32,000 nt of DNA. Source: an uncultured bacterium. GTDB lineage: Bacteria; Auribacterota; Erginobacteria; Erginobacterales; CAZKCI01. Where the stretch lies: positions 45,050-77,049 of the forward strand of contig CAZKCI010000027.1 in the NCBI GenBank assembly GCA_964551475.1, written 5' to 3'. Numbering within the stretch: the first letter of the stretch is position 1; every line of letters starts with the position of its first letter. Shown one piece after another: positions 7,499-18,438 of the stretch. The notes under the pieces are model-generated. The model worked only from the letters and a program-made list of their open reading frames with translations. It had not been told where the DNA came from and ran no database searches. The translations under genes and the position numbers were made by a program.

Positions 7499-8335
7499 TC
7501 ATTCGGTGAATTTAAACAGCGTGATTTCGGGAGGGCAGAGGAAACGGACCGGATAAGGCTTGGACCCGATCCCCCGGTTGACGTAGAGCCAGCCGCCCGG
7601 GAGGGGGAAGAGGCCGCGGAGGAACGGAGAGCGGCCGTAGGATTCGAGGAAACGACCCCAGGCCGGCAGGCCGACCTGTCCGCCATGGGTGTCCCCGGAG
7701 AGCACCAGGTCGGCCCCCTGCTCGATCAGAGCCGGGGCGAGATCGGGGCTGGCGGAGAGGACGACGAGCGGCTCATTCCGAGGAATCCCCTCCAGGGCGG
7801 CGGAGATCCCTCCTTCCCCCCCGTAGTCGACGCCGGCCAGCCAGAAAAAATCCTCCCCGTTCCCGAAGCGCATCTTCAGGCTCTTTCCCCCGATCAGCGA
7901 GAGGCCGGAGCGCTTCCAGAGCAAGACAAAATCGTCTCCCTGGAGGTAAGCCCGGTCGGCGTTCCCCAGGATCCCGTAGCACCACATCCCGGGTCTCAGT
8001 CTCGAAACCAGCCGGGCGACCAGGGGGGCGGCGCGGGAAGATTCGACATAGTCCCCGGTGAAAAGGACGCAGTCCGGATGGAGACGGTTGATCCTTTCGA
8101 TCAGGCTTTTCTCCCGGAACCCCAGCTCCCCGGCGATGTGAAGGTCGGAGACCTGGACGATCCGTCGGCCCTGGAGAACGCGGGCGAGAGCGGGATGGCG
8201 GATGCGGACGGTCGTCACCGTCACCCAGTTCGGCTCGATCACCAGGGCGTCAAAGAGGATAAAGCCGGCCGTGGCGACGGCCGCCAGGCCGAGCAGCGCG
8301 GCCAGAAGAAGGAATTTCGTCGGGGCGGGCCTCAT
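7499..8335 (-). CDS. Membrane-anchored metallophosphoesterase (calcineurin-like, YkuE/YaeI type)
   Basis: 278 aa with an N-terminal TM (FLLLAALLGLAAVATAGFILF). Motifs: VQVSDLHI, FTGDYV, GILGNAD, LSGDTHGGQV. Confidence 0.8.
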   Translation of the reverse strand: MRPAPTKFLLLAALLGLAAVATAGFILFDALVIEPNWVTVTTVRIRHPALARVLQGRRIVQVSDLHIAGELGFREKSLIERINRLHPDCVLFTGDYVESSRAAPLVARLVSRLRPGMWCYGILGNADRAYLQGDDFVLLWKRSGLSLIGGKSLKMRFGNGEDFFWLAGVDYGGEGGISAALEGIPRNEPLVVLSASPDLAPALIEQGADLVLSGDTHGGQVGLPAWGRFLESYGRSPFLRGLFPLPGGWLYVNRGIGSKPYPVRFLCPPEITLFKFTE

Positions 8336-8458
8336 AGAATGCCGCGAGCAGGGTCGAAGCAGTCATCCCCGACGCGGGACGAGGGAACGAATATGAATAT
8401 TCCAGCAACAATCCGGCGCGGGCGGCCGGAGACACCGGCTGACACTTCTGATCAAACC

Positions 8459-8501
8459 GAATAGCCGTCCGCCCCGTTCCAGACGGGCCGGACGGCTATT
8501 C
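8459..8501 (-). terminator. GC-rich hairpin overlapping the stop codon of gene 8496..9953; candidate intrinsic terminator
   Basis: Perfect 13-bp inverted repeat GAATAGCCGTCCG (8459-8471) / CGGACGGCTATTC (8489-8501). An inner CCCGT/ACGGG pairing extends it. On the minus strand it is followed by GGTTTGAT, a weak U tract. Confidence 0.5.
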
Positions 8502-9953
8502 GACGGTGAGCTTCCCTACTTCCCAGTCCTGGATTTCGGGGTTGGTGTAGGGTTCCTTGATGAAGTCCTGCGGGTAGTTCGGCTGAATGATGTTGGTGAC
8601 TTTCTTATTTTCCACGTCCCAGTCCGCCATCTTGACGTAGTTCAGACCGCCGCCTCCGGTGTCGGCGATGATGTAGAGGCCGGCCCTGACCACGTAGTTC
8701 CCCGGAGGGGAGTCGGGGCTCAGCATCAGCGGGCCGGACTCGACCGCGATCTCCTGGTTCAGCGCCCAATTCCGGATCGGGGGATAGAGGGGGACGTCGA
8801 CGTCGATCCTCCCCGCCCGGTCGAACTCGCGGTAGACGTGGACGAACATCTTGTGGGTCGGGAAGAGGGGGGCGGTGAGCTTGTAGACCACCGAGAGCTT
8901 GAAGACATCGCCCCGTTTCACTCTGGTCGGGCCGTCCAGGCGGACAAAGGTGAGCGAGGGCTCTCCGCTGGGCCCGCCCCGGGAGCGCAGACGGAGCATG
9001 GAGAGATAGAAGCTGAAATCCTTTCCGGGCCGCGGAAGGAAAAGCTTGACCGAGCTGATGGCGGAGATGTTGATCGCCCCGCCCGTGTCCATCATGGGGA
9101 CGACCTCACGGACGGTCTCTCCGGGATTGAACCGGATTTCCTTCTTAAAAAGTCTTCCGCTCTTGTCGTTGATCTGGAGGATGACCCGCCCCCCCTCCCC
9201 CCCGGGAATGCCCTGGAGAGCGATCTCCAGGTTGTCATACAGGGACCAGTCGGCGGTACGGGGGCGGAGGGAGAAATAATTCTCGAGGGCGATCGCCGGG
9301 TATTCCCCTTCCGGTTTGATCGTGACCAGCGCCATGGGCGTGTCCCCTTCCTTGAAGAGCGAGATGGTGGCGCCTCGGGGCTCCCAAAAGATCAGGTCCT
9401 GTTCGCTGGCGAAGGTGACCAGGTCGAACTCGGTCGGCGCGGCGGCCGCTCCTTCCTTCTTCTCCGCCGCCTTGACCGAGATCTTCCCCAGGGCGAAGTT
9501 CTTGATCTCGGTGTTGGTGAGGGGTTCCCGGACAAAACGGACCCCTTTCTCGTCCGCGCTGATTTCCATCAGCCCCATCCGCACCTCGTAGTCTCCCGGC
9601 TCCAGATCGTAGGGGATGGACATCCCGAACGGGCCGACCTCGACCACCTGGCCGACCTCCCAGCGGTTGGTCGGGAAGCGGGGGAAGAAATCGGCGTTGA
9701 CACGGACCTCGTTCTGTCCGGCGGGGACGAAGTGCAGGAAAATCTTCTCGCTCTTGTCCACCGGCGCGGTGAGCTGGAAAAAAGCGGATCCGGTGAAAAA
9801 ATCCCCCTGGGAGGCCTCTGTCTGCATCTGGAAGCTGACGAAGGAAACCCGGGGGGAACCCTGGCGAAGAATGGTTTCAGCGGGGGCGGGCGAGGCGAGG
9901 AGGAGCGCCGCGAGAGACAGAAGCGCAGTCAACCATCCGGATGCAGTCTTCAT
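8496..9953 (-). CDS. Secreted protein of unknown family, built from repeated beta-rich modules (paralog of 10113..11150)
   Basis: ORF 8496..9971(-) trimmed to the ATG at 9953 (MKTASGWLTALLSLAALLLASPAPAE signal peptide). Two copies of a module of about 110 aa carry P(R/P)(F/I)(P/R)(T/N)xxW...GP...P.DxxPGxY and end in (Y/L)TN(P/T)EI(Q/K)(D/N)(W/F)..GK(L/I)(T/S)V. A central module is shared with the neighbouring gene. Confidence 0.7.
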   Translation of the reverse strand: MKTASGWLTALLSLAALLLASPAPAETILRQGSPRVSFVSFQMQTEASQGDFFTGSAFFQLTAPVDKSEKIFLHFVPAGQNEVRVNADFFPRFPTNRWEVGQVVEVGPFGMSIPYDLEPGDYEVRMGLMEISADEKGVRFVREPLTNTEIKNFALGKISVKAAEKKEGAAAAPTEFDLVTFASEQDLIFWEPRGATISLFKEGDTPMALVTIKPEGEYPAIALENYFSLRPRTADWSLYDNLEIALQGIPGGEGGRVILQINDKSGRLFKKEIRFNPGETVREVVPMMDTGGAINISAISSVKLFLPRPGKDFSFYLSMLRLRSRGGPSGEPSLTFVRLDGPTRVKRGDVFKLSVVYKLTAPLFPTHKMFVHVYREFDRAGRIDVDVPLYPPIRNWALNQEIAVESGPLMLSPDSPPGNYVVRAGLYIIADTGGGGLNYVKMADWDVENKKVTNIIQPNYPQDFIKEPYTNPEIQDWEVGKLTVE

Positions 9954-9981
9954 GATGTCAGCCCCCAGCATGAGGAATCGC

Positions 9982-10112: not shown

Positions 10113-11150
10113 CTATTTTTTAGGGCCCGTCACCTGGATTTTGCTCACCCGGAACTCCTTGAGCTCCGGGTTCTCATACGGCTGAAAATAGTACTGGAAA
10201 CGGCCGGCGACCTCCAGGGGATGGGCGAGGATCGCTTCCAGGTCGTAGGTACCCGGGGGAAGGTCGGCCGGGAGGGCGACCTCCACCGGGCCGACCTTGA
10301 CCAGCTTGCCCTCCGGCCACTGGCTGGTCGGGAAGGGGGGCGAGACCTCGGCCAGCGTGCGGACATTGCCCTCCCGGCTCAAACGGAGAAGCAGGGTGTG
10401 ATCGGATCCCAGGGGACGGCGGGCGATGAAGTAGAACGATCCCGCAAATTTCTCGCCGGGCGAGGCGGAGGCGGGGAATTCCAGACCCATGAAACGGACC
10501 AGCGCCGTCGACGGCGCTTCCTGGGCGGAAGAGGGAAAACCGATATCGGTGTAATAAAGGACCGTCTCCGAGGAGGGGTCCCAGAGGAAGAAGTTCAGGT
10601 AGCCGATCTTGCTGGCGTCGATCCTCTCCGCGATCTGGCGGACGGGGATCTCGATCCGGCGGGACTGGCCGGGGGCGATCTTCTCCGCCCTCTGGAAGCT
10701 CTGGCCGCCGACGTCCTTGACCTTGACCTTGAGATCGACGTCGAAGGACTGGGGGTTGAAAACCGTGAAGAACAGGGAGGCGGCATCCCTCCAGTCCATC
10801 GTCGGCATGGTGTCGTCGGTCCAGAGGAATCCGGGCGACTGGGAAGGGTAGTAGGTCACCCGGGCCCACTTCTCCGGCGAGTCGAAGGGGCTGTTGACGA
10901 TCTCGAAGCGGGTGCCGGCGGTCACCCAGATCTCGGCGTCTTCGGGTCGGGAGAAATCGCAGCGGAAACCGGCCATGTTCTTCGCCTTGACTCCGGAGAC
11001 GATCGCCACCGGCTCGCGCTTGATCTTTTTCAGCCAGGAGGGCAGCTGGGCGATCCGGTCCTTGAGGAAGAGGCCCAGGACCAGGAGCACCAGGACGACC
11101 CAGGCCGCGGTCATGACCCGGTTGACCCATGTTTTTCTTATGGTTTTCAC
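10113..11150 (-). CDS. Membrane-anchored protein of unknown family (paralog of 8496..9953)
   Basis: 345 aa with a GTG start at 11150; an in-frame ATG alternative is at 11114. It has an N-terminal signal anchor (VMTAAWVVLVLLVLGLFL) and a central module similar to the neighbour. The C-terminal module reads SPPFPTSQWPEGKLVKVGPVEVALPADLPPGTYDLEA ... YENPELKEFRVSKIQV. Confidence 0.7.
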   Translation of the reverse strand: MKTIRKTWVNRVMTAAWVVLVLLVLGLFLKDRIAQLPSWLKKIKREPVAIVSGVKAKNMAGFRCDFSRPEDAEIWVTAGTRFEIVNSPFDSPEKWARVTYYPSQSPGFLWTDDTMPTMDWRDAASLFFTVFNPQSFDVDLKVKVKDVGGQSFQRAEKIAPGQSRRIEIPVRQIAERIDASKIGYLNFFLWDPSSETVLYYTDIGFPSSAQEAPSTALVRFMGLEFPASASPGEKFAGSFYFIARRPLGSDHTLLLRLSREGNVRTLAEVSPPFPTSQWPEGKLVKVGPVEVALPADLPPGTYDLEAILAHPLEVAGRFQYYFQPYENPELKEFRVSKIQVTGPKK

Positions 11151-11297: not shown

Positions 11298-12215
11298 ATG
11301 CGCTTGGCTTTCCTGACCATACTCATCCTCGCGACACTTCCGGGCCAAACCCGGGCGCAACAGCCTGACTCCCCGGAGATGGCCGATCGCACCGACCTGG
11401 AGTCCGTCTGGAAGCGCTCCGGACGGACGACCCGGGTCATCGACTACCCCTTCAGCCCCCGCCCCTGGATCTCCAGCGGTCCCGACCTTCGGGACTGGGG
11501 AAACCAGGGCTACATCTTCATCAACCCGCGGATCGAAGACCGGGCGCGGACCCTTCCCGCCCCCACCCCGGAAGAGGGGCTGACCGCCGTGGAAACGGTC
11601 GAAGCGGAGGAGATCGCCCGCATGCTGGAGGAGGAAAAAGGACGGCGGGGGGCCCTGGAGGCGGAGATCAAAGCGGCGCAGGAGGAGCTCCAGGCGGCCC
11701 GGGAGAAAACCGAAGATCAGTCGGCCAAGATCTTGATTCTCGAAAACCAGATCGAGGAGATGGAAAAGCAGAAGGGCGCCGTGACGGCTGAATGGACAGG
11801 GGAGACCGGCGGAACCGGCGGACCGCCAGCCGCCGGACTTATCGTGGAGAAGACGGACACCTACCCGGTCGGTCAGGACCAGAGCCTGTGGTCGATTGCC
11901 GGGCGGGCCGAGGTCTACGGGAACCCCTTCAAATGGCTCCTTCTCTACCACGCCAACCGCGACCAGATCTTCGACCCCGACCTGATCTATCCCGGCATGA
12001 TCCTGATGGTTCCCCGCTATAAGGACCTGGAGGTTTTCCCGCCCCCGCCGGCGGAAGAGAAAGCGGCGGCGACGGAGCCGGCAGAGGAAGGAGCGGCGGC
12101 GGCGACGCCCGCTTTGACGGAGGAAACCCCTGTTGCCAAGCCCCCGGCGACTTCTCCGGCGAACGCCACCCAGGCTCCAGAAATGCCGGCGCCAAATCCG
12201 TCACCTCTGTCCTGA
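11298..12215 (+). CDS. Secreted coiled-coil protein with a LysM peptidoglycan-binding domain and a Pro/Ala-rich tail
   Basis: 305 aa. AAGGAG at 11283-11288 lies 9 nt before the ATG. Features: signal peptide MRLAFLTILILATLPGQTRAQQ, a coiled-coil segment (EAEIKAAQEELQAAREKTEDQSAKILILENQIEEMEKQK), and a LysM-like segment (YPVGQDQSLWSIAGRAEVYGNPFKWLLLYHANRDQIFDPDLIYPGMILMVP). Confidence 0.8.
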   Translation: MRLAFLTILILATLPGQTRAQQPDSPEMADRTDLESVWKRSGRTTRVIDYPFSPRPWISSGPDLRDWGNQGYIFINPRIEDRARTLPAPTPEEGLTAVETVEAEEIARMLEEEKGRRGALEAEIKAAQEELQAAREKTEDQSAKILILENQIEEMEKQKGAVTAEWTGETGGTGGPPAAGLIVEKTDTYPVGQDQSLWSIAGRAEVYGNPFKWLLLYHANRDQIFDPDLIYPGMILMVPRYKDLEVFPPPPAEEKAAATEPAEEGAAAATPALTEETPVAKPPATSPANATQAPEMPAPNPSPLS

Positions 12216-12258: not shown

Positions 12259-14358
12259 ATGAGCGCAGTGATCCGATCCCGCATAACCTTTCTGATCCTG
12301 GCCGCCGCCGGCTTCCTCTACGCTCCCCTTCTCCCCTCCCAGCAGAGAGCGGACGAATCCCAGGTGGAGACGGCGCTCCAGCAAAAGCTCCAGTCGATGC
12401 TGGACGTCCTGGTCGGCCCCCAGCGCACAATCGTCGACGTCGACGTCACCCTCCGGGACACCGCCACGGCGAACGAGGTGAGTAACCGCGTCCGCGCAAT
12501 GACATCTCTCTCCGGCGTCCGCACCAGCGTGAAAAAGGAGGAGGCGGGGGCCGCCGACGGAGACCTCCTGGAACCCCTGATCTCGAGCCGCCATATCTCG
12601 GTCCAGGCCGACGAAAAGCTCGCCGCCGAGCTGATCGAGAAGATCAAAACCGAGGTCCCCAAGTGGGCCCGGATCAATCCCGGCCGCGGCGACACCTTCA
12701 AGCTGGAGCTCATTCCCTGGCGGGAGATCGTCTCCCCCCCCTCCGCCACCCAGCAGAACTACCTCCTCTACTCCATTTTGGCCATGGTCGTCCTGCTCAT
12801 CCTGATCGCCGCCATCTACTTCCCCCTGAGAAAGCTCAAGATGCCGGAGACAACCCCCCCGGGAGCAATCCCCGGAACACCGGCCGCACCCCGAGGACCG
12901 GGCGAAGAGGCCGCCGGAGGCCCCGGTGAAGAAGAAAAGCGCAAACAGCGCACCGAAGAACTCGATGAATTGAAGCAGGTCTTCGCCGGGGCGGCGAACA
13001 TCGACCAGAGCGGCGTCCTGGAGGAGATCAGGAACATGATCGAGAAGGGCCTCTCCCGCACGCCGGCCCAGATCGACTCAATCCTGGAGGAGATCAAGGA
13101 CATCCTCTCCAAGACCCCCCAGGAGTCGGACACACTCCTGACCGAGATCCGCGACACGCTGGCCGACATGCTGGATGCCCAGAAGAAGCTCACGGCGATG
13201 GGCGGGCTGGGCGCGGGAACCGGGACCGGCGCGGCGGCCCCGGGCGCCGCGCCCGCCGCCGCGCCGGCCGCCCGGGCGGAAGCCGCGGGGCGGGCCGCCG
13301 GGGACGGCGGCTTCGGCCCCGAGGTGGTCGAGGTCCTGGGCAACATCGAGGACCTGATGGCCCAGCAGTTGGAGAAGACACCGGAGAGCGGCATCCTGGA
13401 CGAGCCCTTCAAGTACCTGAAGACCCTTCCGCCCGAAGACGTCGTCATGCTGGTCGAGGACGAGGAGCCGAAGCTCGCGGCCGCCGTCCTCTCCCAGATC
13501 GACTCCAAATCCGCCGCCGACGTGATGGCGGGGATCGAGGAGGAAAAGCAGTTCGAGATCGCCCGGGCGATGACGGGCCTGGTCGAGACGGAGGACCTGG
13601 CCGAGGAGATCAAGGACTTCCTGGAACGCAAGCTCAAGATCGTCCGCCTGCACAAGGACTACATCCCGGTCCTCGGTTACCGGGTCCTGGCCGACATTCT
13701 GTCCTCCAGCCGCTACGCGGTGGCCCGGGTCCTCCTGGACAAGATGGAGTCCAAGAACCCGGCCATGGCCGCCGAGGTGCGCAAACGGATGTTCCTCTTC
13801 GAGGACGTGGTCACCCTGACCGACAAGGACCTCGAGGCCCTGATCCACAACCTCCCCCGGGAGATGGTCTCCTGCGCCCTGGCCGACTCCCCGGAGGAGA
13901 TCCGGAACAAGTTCCTCCAGAACATGACCGAGCGCGCCCGCCAGATGATCCAGGAGGACATGGAGACGCTGAAGAAGGTCCAGCTCGAGAAGGACGGCAA
14001 GGAGATGAACTTCAACGAGGCCATGCTCGCCCTCGATCAGAACGTGATCGAGGAGATCTTCCGGACGGTGGACCGCAACGTGGTCAAGATGGCCCTGCGC
14101 GGGGGCTCCGACGAGGTGCGGGAGAAGTTCTTCGCGGGTCTGACCGAGCGGGCGGTGGTGATGCTCAAGGAGGACCTGGAGGTGATGGGCCAGATCACGC
14201 GCAAGCGCGCCGACGAGGCTCAGGAAGAGGTGATGAACGTCCTCCGCAAGCTCTCCAGCAAGACGCTGGAGGCCCAGCACGAGATCATCGCCACCATCCG
14301 CAAGCTCGAGAAGGAAGGGCAGATCAGCGTCGAGCGCTTTCAGGAAGAGATGGTTTAG
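12259..14358 (+). CDS. FliF-like / FliG-like fusion protein: bitopic membrane protein with a short periplasmic ring-building domain and a cytoplasmic FliG_M plus 2x FliG_C-like region
   Basis: ORF 12133..14358(+) trimmed to the ATG at 12259, with GGGAGA just upstream; the discarded part overlaps the LysM gene. It begins with an anchor helix (ITFLILAAAGFLYAPLL). The periplasmic part (about 140 aa) has FliF/YscJ-type signatures: LQSMLDVLVGPQRTIVDVDVTL, HISVQAD, INPGRGDTFKLELIPW. TM2 is YLLYSILAMVVLLILIAAIYFPL. The FliG_M-like part has EDEEPKLAAAVLSQIDSKSAADVM and the MFLFEDV hinge. Two FliG_C-like units follow: NMTERARQMIQEDMETL, and GLTERAVVMLKEDLEVMGQITRKRADEAQEEVMNVLRKL ... EAQHEIIATIRKLEKEGQISV. 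Confidence 0.8.
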   Translation: MSAVIRSRITFLILAAAGFLYAPLLPSQQRADESQVETALQQKLQSMLDVLVGPQRTIVDVDVTLRDTATANEVSNRVRAMTSLSGVRTSVKKEEAGAADGDLLEPLISSRHISVQADEKLAAELIEKIKTEVPKWARINPGRGDTFKLELIPWREIVSPPSATQQNYLLYSILAMVVLLILIAAIYFPLRKLKMPETTPPGAIPGTPAAPRGPGEEAAGGPGEEEKRKQRTEELDELKQVFAGAANIDQSGVLEEIRNMIEKGLSRTPAQIDSILEEIKDILSKTPQESDTLLTEIRDTLADMLDAQKKLTAMGGLGAGTGTGAAAPGAAPAAAPAARAEAAGRAAGDGGFGPEVVEVLGNIEDLMAQQLEKTPESGILDEPFKYLKTLPPEDVVMLVEDEEPKLAAAVLSQIDSKSAADVMAGIEEEKQFEIARAMTGLVETEDLAEEIKDFLERKLKIVRLHKDYIPVLGYRVLADILSSSRYAVARVLLDKMESKNPAMAAEVRKRMFLFEDVVTLTDKDLEALIHNLPREMVSCALADSPEEIRNKFLQNMTERARQMIQEDMETLKKVQLEKDGKEMNFNEAMLALDQNVIEEIFRTVDRNVVKMALRGGSDEVREKFFAGLTERAVVMLKEDLEVMGQITRKRADEAQEEVMNVLRKLSSKTLEAQHEIIATIRKLEKEGQISVERFQEEMV

Positions 14359-14569: not shown

Positions 14570-15325
14570 ATGCGCGCATCCACGATCATCGGCCTCATCG
14601 CAGCTTTTATCATCGTTTTCCTGTCCATTTTTCTCCGGGGGGGGATGCCGATGGTCATGCTTTTCGTCGACATCCCTTCCATGATCCTGACCGGCGGCTG
14701 CACCGTCGCCTGCATGTTCATCAACTTCACGCCCCGCCAGCTCTGGGATGGACTGCTCTCCTTCCGCTATTGCCTGGTGAGCAAGATGGCCACCCCAGCG
14801 GACGTGATCGAGGTCCTGGTAGAAATGGCGGTCAAGGCCCGCAAGGAGGGCTTCATGGCCCTGCGCGAGCTCTCCACCAAGGGGCGCTACCCCCTCCTCG
14901 ACATCGGCGTGGACCTGGTCGCCGACGGGACCGACCCCGAGGTGACCCGGGGCATCCTGGAGACGGTCTCCGACTACATCAACGTCAAGATCTCGGGCGA
15001 AGAGCGTTTCTGGCGAGACATGTCGATCTACGCCCCCTTCTTCGGGATGCTGGGGACGCTGGTGGGACTGATCATGCTTCTGAAGACACTGAAGGACCCG
15101 GAGACGATCGCCCCCAACATGTCGCTCGCCCTGGTCACCACGTTCTATGGCTGCGTCATCGCCGGCATCATTTGCATGCCGGTCGCGGGCAAGATCCACG
15201 TCTACAACACCAACCTGGCCTTGAGCCGCGAGATCATCATCGAAGGGATCGCGTCCATCCAGGCCGGCGACAACTCCCAGATCGTCCGCGAGAAGCTCCA
15301 GGCCTATCTCGCGGGGCTACAGTAA
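14570..15325 (+). CDS. motA: Flagellar-type stator A subunit (MotA/PomA family)
   Basis: 251 aa with 4 TM helices and a long TM2-TM3 cytoplasmic loop containing ARKEGFMALRE (the charged-residue region that contacts FliG in model systems). Also APFFGMLGTLVGLIMLL and ALVTTFYGCVIAGIICMPVAGKI, which carry the conserved prolines of the MotA channel helices. Confidence 0.9.
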   Translation: MRASTIIGLIAAFIIVFLSIFLRGGMPMVMLFVDIPSMILTGGCTVACMFINFTPRQLWDGLLSFRYCLVSKMATPADVIEVLVEMAVKARKEGFMALRELSTKGRYPLLDIGVDLVADGTDPEVTRGILETVSDYINVKISGEERFWRDMSIYAPFFGMLGTLVGLIMLLKTLKDPETIAPNMSLALVTTFYGCVIAGIICMPVAGKIHVYNTNLALSREIIIEGIASIQAGDNSQIVREKLQAYLAGLQ

Positions 15326-15423: not shown

Positions 15424-16245
15424 ATGCCCGTAGAGGACAAGCCGGTTCCGCGCGAACGCAAGCGGGTCAACCCCGACCAGGAGGGCGGCGGGCTCTCCTC
15501 CTCCTGGCCGCCCGTCTGGATGACCACCTACTCCGACATGATCACCAACCTGATGACCTTCTTCGTGCTCCTCTACGCCCTGACCATGGTGAGGATCCCC
15601 TTCGATCTGGTCAAGTTCGCTGAACCGGGAGACAAGCGCATTGTGCCCACCGGCAGCGAGGATTTTTTCTACACCGATGAAACCCAGTCAGCAGATGATA
15701 TCCAGGTTCTGGAGCAGATCGAACGGATGACGGCGGAAGACCGGCTGGCCTTGAGCGAGATGGCGACGTTCCAGGAGCAGGTGGAAGAACTGAAGCGGAC
15801 ACTGGAAAAGGGGAGGCTCGCCGACGGCGTAAAGGTGTTGATCACCGCCGAAGACGTGGTCATTGTCCCTTCCGCGCCCCTGATTTTCGCGGAAGGCTCG
15901 GACCGGATCAAAGAGTCCTTTTTCCCCATCCTCGACCGTCTGGCGGGGCTGATCAAGGATACCAAAGCCTCCGTCCGTATCGAGGGGCACACCGACGACA
16001 CGCCGATCGACCCCCTCCACCGGAACCGTTTCCCCAGCAACTACGAGCTCTCCGCCGCCCGGGCGATCGCCGTCGGCCGCTATTTTATCGAAAAGCACGC
16101 CGTGCCTCCCGAGCGGATCGCCGTGGCCGGCTACGGCCCCCTCCTCCCCCGCTTCCTGGCCAGCGAGCCCGAGAAGCGGGCGCTCAACCGCCGGGTCGAG
16201 TTCCATATTTTCATATCTTCGGCGACCCTCTCGAAAGAGGGCTGA
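15424..16245 (+). CDS. motB: Flagellar-type stator B subunit (MotB family, OmpA-like C-terminal domain), copy 1
   Basis: ORF 14770..16245(+) trimmed to the ATG at 15424, because the upstream part overlaps motA out of frame. In-frame GTG alternatives exist at 15385 and 15406. The plug/TM region WPPVWMTTYSDMITNLMTFFVLLYAL contains the conserved Asp. OmpA-like domain: VRIEGHTDDTPI, SNYELSAARAIAVGRYF, NRRVEFHIF. Confidence 0.85.
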   Translation: MPVEDKPVPRERKRVNPDQEGGGLSSSWPPVWMTTYSDMITNLMTFFVLLYALTMVRIPFDLVKFAEPGDKRIVPTGSEDFFYTDETQSADDIQVLEQIERMTAEDRLALSEMATFQEQVEELKRTLEKGRLADGVKVLITAEDVVIVPSAPLIFAEGSDRIKESFFPILDRLAGLIKDTKASVRIEGHTDDTPIDPLHRNRFPSNYELSAARAIAVGRYFIEKHAVPPERIAVAGYGPLLPRFLASEPEKRALNRRVEFHIFISSATLSKEG

Positions 16246-16250
16246 ACGCG

Positions 16251-17078
16251 ATGGGATCAAAAAGAAAAAGGATGGCCCAGGTGGAGGACAAGGGGCTGTC
16301 CGGCATGTGGCCCCCGGTCTGGATGACCACCTACTCCGACATGGTCACCAACGTGATGGTCTTTTTCGTCATCCTCTCCGCCATGCTCGTCCTCAAGATC
16401 GACGTGACCTTGATCGCCGGGCCAAAGATGCGCGGCGACAAAGAAAGGCCGACCAAGGTGAAAAAGCTAACCGCGGAACAGAAGACCATGGTCGACAATT
16501 TCCGCGCTCTGGAAGAACAGCAGATGCGGGAGGCTGCCTCGGTCACCAAGATGCAGCAGATCGGCGAGGAGATCGCCCAGTATATCCTGAAAGCCAATCT
16601 TCAGAAATTCGTCGTGGTGGAGACGACCAAGTGGAAGGTCAAGGTGGTCCCGCTCACCCCCTTCCTTTTCTCCCCCGGTCGGGCGGTCATCCGCCCGGAG
16701 TCCCGTGACTTCCTCGACCGCCTGGCCAAGTTCTTCAGCATCAACCCCGGCCAGATCCGGATCGCCGGCCATACCGATAACCTGCCCATCTACTCCGCCG
16801 AGTATCGCTCGAACTGGGAGCTCTCCGCCGCCCGGGCGGCCGCCATCATGAGGTATCTGGTGGAAGTCCACGGGCTCGATCCGAAGAGGTTCGTCGCGGT
16901 CGGCTGTGGGCCCTACCAACCGTTGGCGGACAACTCCACGCCGGAAGGGCGCAAGGAGAACCGCCGGGTGGAGATCGAGATCACTCAGGAACCCGAACCG
17001 GCGGGAAAGGCCGCAAAAGGCGGCATGGATGCGGCGGGGACCGCGGACGGCGGGGGGGCGGTCTCTCCGGCGAATTGA
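16251..17078 (+). CDS. motB: Flagellar-type stator B subunit (MotB family, OmpA-like C-terminal domain), copy 2
   Basis: 275 aa. WPPVWMTTYSDMVTNVMVFFVILSAM has the conserved Asp. OmpA-like domain: IRIAGHTDNLPI, SNWELSAARAAAIMRYL, NRRVEIEI. The start is 5 nt after copy 1's stop codon. Confidence 0.85.
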   Translation: MGSKRKRMAQVEDKGLSGMWPPVWMTTYSDMVTNVMVFFVILSAMLVLKIDVTLIAGPKMRGDKERPTKVKKLTAEQKTMVDNFRALEEQQMREAASVTKMQQIGEEIAQYILKANLQKFVVVETTKWKVKVVPLTPFLFSPGRAVIRPESRDFLDRLAKFFSINPGQIRIAGHTDNLPIYSAEYRSNWELSAARAAAIMRYLVEVHGLDPKRFVAVGCGPYQPLADNSTPEGRKENRRVEIEITQEPEPAGKAAKGGMDAAGTADGGGAVSPAN

Positions 17079-17319: not shown

Positions 17320-18438
17320 TCATAACCCCAGAGCCTTCCTGGCCTTGGCCAGCTTGATCCGGGCGTACTCGAAGAGGATGAGCGGATACATCCGCGGGTT
17401 GAACAGGATGTTCAGCGTGAGGAAGCACTCGTAGGTGCAGAAGCATTTGCTCTCCCGGATCGTCCGCCGGGCGGCGCGGGCCTTCTCCCCGAACCAGATC
17501 TTCTTGAAGTCATAGCCTTCCTTCCGTACGTTCCCGAGCTTCAGATCGGCGTGGAGCTCGCAAGGCAGCACGTCCCCGTTGGCGAAGAGGGCCGCCCCCA
17601 GCGTCCCCCCCTGGCAGGGCAGGATCATCCGGTTCTCCCGGATCAGGCGGGCGATGATCCGGTGCCGGATGATCCTCTTGGCGTTGATCAGGTCGGCCAG
17701 GGGGAAACGGGTGTAGCCGGTCAGCTCGCGCTGGCGCAACCCCTTCTCCATCGCCCGGGCATAACGCTCGTAGTTGTCGATGTTGAAGAACTTCGCCGAC
17801 GGCTCCATCGGCTTGCCCCGGGTGAGGAGGGTGAAGAGGGTGTCGGCCCCGAGAACCCGGGTGAAGTGGTCGTACATCTCGAGAAGTTTCGCGTCGTTGT
17901 AGGACGAGACGGTGGTCTCGATGGTGGAGGTGAAACGGGGGTATTCCTGCTCGAGCTTCTTCAGCTCGCGGAAGGTGGCGGTCGCCTTTTCGAAGAGGCC
18001 GGGGAAACCCCTGATCTCGTCGTGGTCGGCGCCGATCCCGTCCAGGGACACGTCCACCATCAGGTCGAGGCCGGGGCAGGACTTCAGGATAGACCGGGTC
18101 GTCTCCACCACCCGCTCGGTCAGCGACCCGTTGGTGGGAATGCCCACGTTCTGGACGCGGTTGTTGCGGTGGAAGATCTTGACGATCTCGGCGAGATCTT
18201 TGCGGAGAAACGGCTCGCCCCCGGTGGGAAGGAGGAAAAGGAAATCGTCCATGGAGCGGGAGACCTTCTCGATTTCTTCGATCGTGAGCTGGTCCTGGCC
18301 GGGGTCGATCCCGGCCAGCAGGCAGTGCCGGCAGCGGGCGTTGCAGGCGGAGGTGACGAAAAAGACCAGGTAGAGGGGCGAGGCGTTACCCTGGAAAAGA
18401 ACGCGGGGCGCGTATTTGAGATAGTGGAGAGATTTCAT
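17320..18438 (-). CDS. Radical SAM enzyme with a C-terminal SPASM-type auxiliary cluster domain
   Basis: 372 aa. It has the CNARCRHC (CxxxCxxC) motif near the N-terminus and GGEPFL. The C-terminal Cys-rich region is PCQGG...PCE...GN...CFCTYEC. Confidence 0.85.
   Translation of the reverse strand: MKSLHYLKYAPRVLFQGNASPLYLVFFVTSACNARCRHCLLAGIDPGQDQLTIEEIEKVSRSMDDFLFLLPTGGEPFLRKDLAEIVKIFHRNNRVQNVGIPTNGSLTERVVETTRSILKSCPGLDLMVDVSLDGIGADHDEIRGFPGLFEKATATFRELKKLEQEYPRFTSTIETTVSSYNDAKLLEMYDHFTRVLGADTLFTLLTRGKPMEPSAKFFNIDNYERYARAMEKGLRQRELTGYTRFPLADLINAKRIIRHRIIARLIRENRMILPCQGGTLGAALFANGDVLPCELHADLKLGNVRKEGYDFKKIWFGEKARAARRTIRESKCFCTYECFLTLNILFNPRMYPLILFEYARIKLAKARKALGL

Follow-up and report, generated by a model that had tools for sequence, protein, structure and literature searches.

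A FliF/FliG hybrid protein with two successive FliG C-terminal bundles, encoded with flagellar-type stator subunits in an Auribacterota contig

To our knowledge, the C-terminal bundle of FliG is the only rotor surface to which the stator delivers torque, and each subunit is taken to have one. In the canonical contact, the charged pair R90/E98 of MotA faces FliG, and E98 is the partner of FliG R281. On the stator side, a cytoplasmic torque-generating interface, a plug and OmpA features are treated as specific to flagellar stators (PMC12505986), and on the rotor side, engineered fusions of FliF and FliG are known from Vibrio (8z4d/8z4g; PMC10941966). Here we describe a gene in a 32,000-nt stretch of DNA from an uncultured Auribacterota bacterium (contig CAZKCI010000027.1; the whole stretch is called the window) whose product, a FliF/FliG hybrid of 699 amino acids (aa), carries two such bundles one after the other. 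All window coordinates given below are positions in this stretch, and all aa numbers are those of the 699-aa hybrid. A preliminary description of the region, made from the sequence alone, had set the doubling against a single C-bundle unit in canonical FliG, and that count is upheld; the hybrid family fixes two C-bundles per chain. The literature that we searched, with incomplete coverage, describes neither a doubling of the FliG C-domain nor the gene module around it, and the order unit 1-unit 2-helix-helix inside a FliF/FliG hybrid, together with its module, is apparently undescribed. The explanation that fits best overall, and that we consider fairly probable, is an ancient duplicated FliG tail in a hybrid rotor, with unit 2 as the tooth that meets the stator and with a role in the cell envelope other than swimming.

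Two C-terminal bundles and a doubled last helix

The segment at 13789-14358 (+) translates to the C-terminus of the hybrid, identical to the peptide in which two successive FliG C-bundle units had been proposed after an MFLF hinge, and both alignment and profiles confirm the proposal. Unit 1 (aa 512-571) aligns to unit 2 (aa 584-646) without a gap over 60 residues, 19 of which are identical; the identity between the two copies is 30-32%. The BLOSUM62 score of this alignment is 98, compared to 30 +/- 5 for 2000 shuffles, with a maximum of 54 (z = 12.7). Using profiles of the two units from 16 family members, hhalign reports a probability of 99.4% and an E-value of 4.5e-21 over 63 columns. Each profile also matches solved FliG C-domains by itself, that of unit 1 at E 5e-22 to 1e-20 and that of unit 2 at E 3.7e-25; the match of the unit 1 profile to 1qc7 starts exactly at MFVFED and extends through the torque helix. 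The acidic pair that had been noted in both units is present in each, as QED at aa 565-567 and KED at aa 637-639. In an alignment to Thermotoga maritima FliG, ARM_M, a reduced Gly linker and ARM_C all lie before the hinge (aa ~392-510), so the domain count of M, ARM_C, C, C is that of standard FliG plus one.

The doubled terminal helix (EAQEEVMNVLRKL / EAQHEIIATIRKL) also holds up: the two copies score 37 against each other, which was reached by 0 of 5000 shuffles. At the DNA level the doubling is a 39-nt direct repeat of 72% identity with 54 nt between the copies, and when the protein is compared by BLASTP to a single-helix relative, an 18-residue gap opens exactly at the repeat. Because the AQ.E(I/V) motifs of the two copies are 18 residues apart, that is, five turns, both point to one side of the helix. 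A simple tandem copy of the entire domain, on the other hand, is not supported. The order is a truncated unit 1, unit 2, helix, helix, and because one simple tandem duplication cannot produce this order, two events or a nested insertion are required: either a duplication of the domain with loss of most of the last helix of unit 1, followed by an 18-aa duplication of the helix, or a nested insertion. The connector between the units, KKVQLEKDGKEM, has a mean column identity of 84% in the family.

We ran AlphaFold2 (AF2) on aa 350-699 with the 27-sequence family alignment. The model contains two five-helix bundles, with per-residue confidence (pLDDT) of 80-91 and a short connector between them, and one continuous helix (aa 648-685) that covers both last-helix copies. 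Using Foldseek, the model of the tail matches FliG MC structures at E ~1e-6, isolated FliG_C (1qc7_B) with a root-mean-square deviation (rmsd) of 1.5 A over 85 columns, and stator-bound FliG_C (8ucs_H) with an rmsd of 1.7 A. Copy b of the last helix probably completes the fold of unit 1, because the last helix of unit 1 is cut to a 12-residue vestige, because copy b bears the canonical ...RKLEKEGQISV end, and because the two AQ.E(I/V) motifs face the same helix side.

Both units and both helix copies are found in 27 of 27 full-length homologues (50-100% identity), which carry the names PVC group, Ca. Auribacterota and Ca. Erginobacter occultus, and the same architecture occurs on independent contigs of 11 species and a second phylum. 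With aa 511-699 as the query, HMMER was run exhaustively over 1.84 billion representatives and found 1781 FliG_C-like proteins. In the best 150 of these, alignments that span both units are limited to about seven clusters; the ordinary FliGs align to positions ~66-157 of the query, which correspond to unit 2. The more distant double-unit members (P0028-P0034), one of which (P0028) is from Ca. Omnitrophota, are 33-42% identical to the query and have the whole architecture in common with it, and their unit 2 opens with a clearer second hinge-like motif (xFFED, LFED). When metagenome contigs were scanned with a profile of the Omnitrophota-type alignment, canonical FliG dominated the matches, and one short member only (L024) was recovered.

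In a distance tree of the individual units, the unit 2 copies of both lineages fall into one clade, and no unit 1 pairs with its own unit 2. The duplication therefore predates the split between the Auribacterota and the Omnitrophota-type lineages; that is, the doubling is an ancient, fixed internal duplication inside the FliF/FliG hybrid. It is also a derived state in an existing hybrid family, because a sister protein in the same module (P0061, locus L107) has a single unit. This unit has 24/62 identical residues with unit 1 of the hybrid and the same number with unit 2, so it singles out neither as the original copy; the module apparently works with one unit. Multiplication of FliG_C as such is not unique, since the metagenomic proteins P0033, P0037, P0035 and P0040 carry several copies. 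These and P0038 are further uncharacterised proteins with two to four FliG_C domains in other arrangements; P0033 consists of three bare C-domains, and P0035 (996 aa) has a CheY-binding-like N-terminus (LTQDEIDELL) and two FliG_MC repeats.

The two units are not conserved to the same degree. The mean distance among copies in the unit tree is 0.53 for unit 1 and 0.39 for unit 2, and the column identities are 72% and 86%, respectively. For the torque-helix charges (K264, R281, D288, D289 and R297 in Escherichia coli numbering), unit 2 has four of the five and unit 1 has three. Specifically, the K264 position is R or K in unit 2 and has no equivalent in unit 1, and the R281 position is an invariant R in unit 2 and R or K in unit 1 of the 27-member family. 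The D288/D289 position is an invariant ED in unit 2 (E638, D639); in unit 1, E566 is invariant and D567 is present in at least 90% of the 27-member family. At R297 there is no fixed equivalent in unit 2 and none in unit 1. The R/K...ED triad of unit 1 is under purifying selection in the Auribacterota clade. In four of the Omnitrophota-type relatives (P0029, P0031, P0032 and P0034), basic and/or acidic positions of unit 1 have been lost, while the charges of unit 2 are invariant. Given this difference in charge conservation, unit 2 is the universally conserved candidate for the stator contact and unit 1 is at most a clade-specific one; because of the charges lost in the Omnitrophota-type relatives, a structural or spacer role for unit 1 is at least as likely.

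These data bear directly on an alternative, the reading of the preliminary description, in which both C-bundles touch MotA and the stoichiometry or geometry of the stator contacts would change. Each protomer would then have two torque sites, with the consequence that the teeth per ring subunit would be doubled or that one chain would bridge two MotA subunits. Unit 1 keeps the basic R281 position and the acidic pair throughout the 27-member family despite a column identity of 72%, and AF2 folds it confidently as the same bundle, as might be expected if it were a second tooth. However, it has no counterpart of K264, it evolves faster than unit 2, it has lost charges in those four relatives where unit 2 is invariant, and a single-unit protein serves the same module. 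We regard two active teeth as possible, at well below an even chance, and prefer unit 2 as the tooth.

A FliF/FliG hybrid in a stator operon

The host of this tail is not a standard flagellar FliG. The chain reads, in order, a FliF part (RBM3 and the second transmembrane helix, TM2), a linker, and a FliG part with M, ARM_C and two C-domains; it is a hybrid without FliG_N. Its start is the ATG at 12259 (MSAVIRS), which is used by the 100%-identical P0001 and by all homologues; the list of open reading frames (ORFs) instead starts at an upstream TTG (12133), which gives 741 aa. Pfam finds FliG_M (E 1.6e-10) and FliG_C (E 4e-39, in three stretches), and an alignment to 4fhr/1lkv shows ARM_C followed by the MFXF hinge. 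For FliG_N (PF14842), the only Pfam match has an E-value of 0.33 and covers a stretch that is FliG_M, and the region before it is the TM helix and a low-complexity linker. The EHPQR motif that binds FliM is altered to EEPK...E, in which E402 and K405 are invariant and P404 is present in at least 90% of the family. The score for the fliG equivalog TIGR00207 is 158.4 bits with a cutoff of 226.7, and two bundles stand where canonical FliG has a single six-helix bundle.

The N-terminal 192 residues contain a hydrophobic N-terminus, a periplasmic domain of about 125-135 aa, and a TM helix (aa 163-191) that is strongly conserved in the family alignment. A profile of this region has a sole match in the PDB, to residues 375-478 of Salmonella FliF (the end of RBM3, RGDTL and TM2; E 0.017). 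AF2 predicts an alpha-beta-(insert)-beta-alpha-beta topology for aa 27-152 (pLDDT 77), and in a Foldseek search with the N-terminal model the top 17 PDB matches are all RBM3/S-ring parts of the FliF MS-ring (E 1e-4 to 4e-3), followed by PrgK/EscJ. The hybrid therefore has the RBM fold with a following TM helix that is expected of FliF/SctJ proteins. Pfam YscJ_FliF and YscJ_FliF_C had no match at E<=0.1, and RBM1, RBM2 and a beta-collar were not found.

The linker of the hybrid is ~200 aa long. Within it, three ~18-aa repeats of the form LLEEI(K/R)D.L (13009-13188, aa 251-310), recognisable also in P0028, P0030 and P0061, occupy the place that the FliF tail and FliG_N have in the two-protein system. 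The fusion would stand in for the interaction between these two parts. Nature has made such a fusion elsewhere: P0098 (787 aa, L108 10001-12364) lies between fliE and fliH/fliI in a bona fide flagellar operon and contains YscJ_FliF, YscJ_FliF_C, FliG_M and FliG_C, with no FliG_N detected by Pfam; its JGI sample has a number close to that of the window's sample. The features of the hybrid gene and its neighbours are listed in Table 1.

Table 1. Features of the hybrid gene and of the genes around it in the window
Feature	Position	Strand	Basis
Metallophosphoesterase, conserved neighbour	7499..8335	-	
Conserved divergent neighbour, 491 aa, weak paralogue of the 333-aa protein, no family match	8496..9971	-	
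Conserved divergent neighbour, 333 aa, N-terminal TM, no family match	10113..11114	-	
LysM protein, 305 aa: signal peptide, coiled coil, LysM peptidoglycan-binding domain	11298..12215	+	NCBIfam LysM E 4e-8
FliF/FliG hybrid gene, 699 aa, family P0001-P0027	12259..14358	+	Pfam, 27 homologues
N-terminal hydrophobic helix (signal peptide or TM1)	12259..12339	+	AF2 helix 2-20, sequence inspection
Periplasmic FliF RBM3-like ring-building domain, aa 27-152	12337..12714	+	AF2, Foldseek, PDB profile match
TM helix, aa 163-191, FliF TM2 equivalent, RGDT motif before it	12745..12831	+	FliF alignment, AF2
Cytoplasmic linker: charged part, repeats, Ala/Gly/Pro-rich low-complexity part, one helix	12832..13431	+	Low pLDDT in AF2
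FliG middle domain (ARM_M); EEPK...E instead of EHPQ...R (13456-13497)	13432..13638	+	Pfam PF14841, T. maritima FliG alignment
ARM_C segment (aa 471-510), Gly-Gly linker down to one Gly (LGY)	13669..13788	+	T. maritima FliG ARM_C alignment
MFXF hinge (MFLF), aa 511-514	13789..13800	+	Alignment; M511, F512, F514 invariant
Unit 1, first FliG C-bundle copy, helices 1-5; torque-helix equivalent 13930-13968	13792..13971	+	
Unit 1-unit 2 connector KKVQLEKDGKEM, vestige aligned to start of canonical last helix	13972..14007	+	1qc7 alignment
Unit 2, second, more canonical FliG C-bundle copy; torque helix 14146-14184	14008..14196	+	
Last-helix copy a (TRKRADEAQEEVMNVLRKLSS)	14197..14259	+	
Last-helix copy b with canonical C-terminal end (KTLEAQHEIIATIRKLEKEGQISV)	14260..14331	+	
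FlbD, 66 aa, begins 1 nt past hybrid stop codon	14360..14560	+	Pfam PF06289 E 4.8e-27
MotA/PomA-type stator A subunit	14570..15325	+	R90 equivalent kept, E98 equivalent = Arg
MotB paralogue 1: plug, channel Asp, OmpA-like domain	15424..16245	+	
MotB paralogue 2: plug, channel Asp, OmpA-like domain	16251..17078	+	

The operon LysM-hybrid-FlbD-MotA-MotB-MotB and its divergent neighbours are syntenic in 11 GTDB species, in two Omnitrophota-type loci (L104 and L105) and in the single-unit locus L107. Wherever the flanks are annotated, in at least two candidate phyla, the module lies among polysaccharide biosynthesis and export genes, which encode the priming transferase Bac_transf, deacetylases, glycosyltransferases, Wzx, Wzy, Wza, Wzc and the exosortases EpsH/EpsI; the window contains, besides the module, polysaccharide and housekeeping genes only. 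We compared the ORFs of eight canonical flagellar loci to 14 module loci and found matches to FliG, MotA and MotB only. No fliF, fliH/I, fliM/N or fliE was found within +/-8-10 kb in the 14 module loci. The setting of the gene is not a flagellar operon but a conserved operon among polysaccharide genes. The Auribacterota metagenome-assembled genomes (MAGs) from Ace Lake, including that of Ca. Erginobacter occultus, a carrier of the module (L008/L106), are reported to encode no flagella (PMC9324843). That the module is non-flagellar is well supported by the module loci and by this published statement on one carrier, short of proof for the organism of the window.

The LysM protein, the first gene of the operon and upstream of the hybrid in all lineages, has a coiled coil of ~60 aa and a Pro/Ala-rich tail. 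The 333-aa and 491-aa proteins, which are membrane-anchored or secreted, adjoin most module copies in both phyla and in L107, and neither has a match in Pfam, NCBIfam, PADLOC or PDB sequences. In the Auribacterota loci the module is flanked by the EpsH/EpsI exosortase pair (PEP-CTERM sorting; ~5100-6600, L001 2876-4029) and by a radical-SAM/SPASM enzyme (17320-18438, -); the neighbourhood of L107 has a GH123 glycoside hydrolase instead. In L104, the LysM gene is immediately preceded by genes for a histidine kinase and a response-regulator-GGDEF diguanylate cyclase (6494-9160), an arrangement that hints at control of the module by cyclic di-GMP.

The stator subunits are of the flagellar type. 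PomA and Aquifex MotA both align to the module MotA from end to end (E ~5e-39); because of the alignment with PomA, we assign this MotA a flagellar-type cytoplasmic interface. MotB_plug and OmpA are found in both MotBs, with YSD conserved. These are the features of the flagellar-type MotA5B2 stators called the 'FIT' group (PMC12505986): an expanded interface in A, and a plug, a channel Asp and an OmpA-like domain in B. All of the NCBIfam equivalog cutoffs for MotA/PomA are missed by the module MotA. At the position equivalent to E98 (E96 in PomA), 14 of 14 module MotAs have Arg or Lys, and five of five canonical MotAs have Glu; in the MotA of the window this position lies in ...MALRELS (aa ~96-98), and the R90 equivalent is kept. 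The single-unit module has the charge reversal too, so it is a signature of the module and not of the duplication. A compensating Glu at FliG position 280 (the 'TER' motif) was considered and rejected, as Glu or Asp is present there in 38 of 138 unrelated FliG_C torque helices. The two MotB paralogues, ~39% identical to each other, follow a single MotA and form orthologous pairs in Auribacterota and Omnitrophota-type loci; they may form a heterodimeric B2 or two types of stator. With PADLOC, MotA had no match to ZorA, and similarity to ZorB was only the generic one of MotB, so the pair does not qualify as the ZorAB of Zorya, a defence system in which ZorA has a long cytoplasmic tail and is accompanied by ZorC/D/E or similar proteins.

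Possible function and competing explanations

The protein has the appearance of a flagellar motor core that has been put to another use. In the explanation that we favour, the RBM3-like domains and the stacking of ARM_M and ARM_C would assemble a small membrane ring. PomA-type MotA5B2 units, held to the peptidoglycan via the OmpA-like domains of MotB, would engage the torque helix of unit 2, the conserved tooth, and would either turn the ring or be held by it. Unit 1, the diverged copy, would most likely be a rigid pedestal or spacer whose fold is completed by last-helix copy b, and the two units would share one long helix; in the Auribacterota clade, unit 1 may offer a second contact surface. 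The output would probably be a mechanical or regulatory coupling to the production of envelope polysaccharide, not swimming. A fuller version, which we offer only tentatively, is a self-contained, non-flagellar, ion-driven rotary module, consisting of a two-torque-domain hybrid ring, a MotA with reversed E98, two MotBs, FlbD and a LysM tether, that might serve the making, export or organising of exopolysaccharide in non-flagellated Auribacterota and Omnitrophota. If this version is true, the rotary module is an exaptation of the flagellar motor core, or a rotor-stator pair without the type III export apparatus and the axial structure.

Several points weigh against the favoured explanation. The link to polysaccharide export comes from the gene neighbourhood only, and ring formation and rotation are what we infer. 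The overall predicted template modelling score (pTM) of the AF2 model of aa 350-699 is 0.46, and the relative orientation of the units in it is therefore unreliable. Likewise, the packing of unit 1 on helix copy b is deduced from the features listed above. Omnitrophota-type members have a Pro between the two helix copies, so one straight helix is perhaps not general. Because the E98 position of MotA is Arg or Lys, the canonical electrostatic scheme cannot apply unchanged. Finally, the absence of flagella at the genome level rests on the published statement for one carrier.

A different reading dispenses with rotation: the FliG-like platform would be static, and the stator-like ion channel docked on it would sense or regulate the production of polysaccharide, with the extra unit as one more surface on which FlbD, a glycosyltransferase or another partner could dock. 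Stator-dependent surface sensing and the clutch logic of EpsE and FliG provide parallels. The position of the module among polysaccharide genes in the annotated loci, the kinase and GGDEF protein that adjoin it in L104, and the lack, in the 14 module loci, of any axial or export parts that a rotor could drive would all be natural in such a system, and the altered charge of MotA suggests a non-canonical interface. Nevertheless, the RBM3-like domain, MFXF, the torque-helix charges, the MotB plug, the channel Asp and the peptidoglycan-binding domain have all been retained, and these are what a working rotor and stator need. We therefore judge a static platform rather unlikely and stay with a rotor in which unit 2 is the tooth.

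An ordinary flagellar FliG, or an accessory paralogue such as FliG1 of spirochaetes, with the other flagellar genes elsewhere in the genome, might be suggested by the JGI label 'flagellar motor switch protein FliG', by the resemblance of FlbD-MotA-MotB to a flagellar-type stator operon, by the natural fusion P0098 in a real flagellar operon (L108), and by the report of flagella in one Auribacterota MAG, Ca. Auribacter fodinae. Against it are a TIGR00207 score of 158 with a cutoff of 226.7, the absence of FliG_N, the loss of EHPQR, and a lone RBM3 without RBM1/2 and without a Pfam match to YscJ_FliF. Furthermore, the operon is syntenic in every locus, with polysaccharide flanks where these are annotated and never with fliE/H/I/M/N, and the carrier Ca. 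Erginobacter occultus is reported to be non-flagellated. An ordinary flagellar role is the least likely function, and a very improbable one, because of these sequence tests and the genomic context. We reject as hardly credible the ideas that unit 1 is the known ARM_M/ARM_C repeat, which the preliminary description had named as the outcome that would undo the duplication, or that the doubling is an artefact of assembly or frameshift: FliG domains are internally repetitive and the unit 1 profile weakly matches the FliG_M region (domain 2, i-E 0.28), but the T. maritima alignment places ARM_M and a separate ARM_C (aa 471-510) upstream of the hinge, unit 1 aligns to the bundle that follows MFXF at E 1e-20, and the architecture is conserved on the independent contigs of 11 species and a second phylum.

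The module may be an undescribed non-flagellar rotor-stator system. In two candidate phyla, a FliG and a flagellar-type stator have been kept without the rest of the flagellum, with polysaccharide genes alongside in the annotated loci. The one-unit sister P0061, in the same module, provides a natural comparison for the number and spacing of teeth. Should the module rotate, it would be a minimal rotor-stator pair that lends itself to structural work and bears on the origin or reuse of the motor core; if it does not rotate, it represents a new coupling of ion flow to the production of envelope polysaccharide.

Comparison with known systems

Compared to canonical FliG (PF14842/PF14841/PF01706; 3hjl, 1lkv, 1qc7, 8ucs), the hybrid has FliG_M, ARM_C, MFXF and the torque-helix bundle in common; its unit 2 superposes on FliG_C at 1.5-1.7 A and has the equivalents of R281 and D288/D289 and a basic residue at K264. 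It differs in having no FliG_N, EEPK...E in place of the FliM-binding motif, a single-Gly linker, two C-bundles and a doubled last helix, and in being fused to a membrane-anchored FliF-like domain and encoded outside a flagellar operon. Compared to RBM3 and TM2 of FliF, which assembles into an MS-ring of ~33-34 subunits (6scn, 6sd1, 7bk0, 8t8p), the RBM3 fold, the RGDT-like motif and the TM helix occur in the same order. However, the hybrid has a single RBM, with an insert of ~40 aa in place of the beta-collar of ~110 aa, and the sequence similarity is marginal (E 0.017), with YscJ_FliF undetected by Pfam.

Like the engineered and natural FliF-FliG fusions, the hybrid combines a rotor membrane protein and FliG in one chain, and like P0098 it has no detectable FliG_N. 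P0098, in contrast, has full YscJ_FliF domains, EHPQ, the GG linker, one C-bundle and one last helix. The single-unit sister P0061 (645 aa, L107) shares the signal or TM segment, the RBM-like domain, the TM helix, a linker with ILEEIKDIL, FliG_M, ARM_C and MFXF, as well as the same operon and neighbours and a MotA that also has Arg at the E98 position; it differs in having one C-bundle and one last helix.

The Agl-Nfs machinery of Myxococcus handles spore-coat polysaccharide. In concept, the module resembles ExbBD, TolQR, AglRQS, GldLM and ZorAB, in which motors of the MotAB family serve envelope processes besides swimming (PMC12505986). Unlike these non-flagellar 5:2 ion-driven motors, the module has a stator of the flagellar PomA/MotA type, with a plug and an OmpA-like domain in MotB, and the partner of this stator is a FliG homologue rather than a protein of the TonB, TolA or GldM type.

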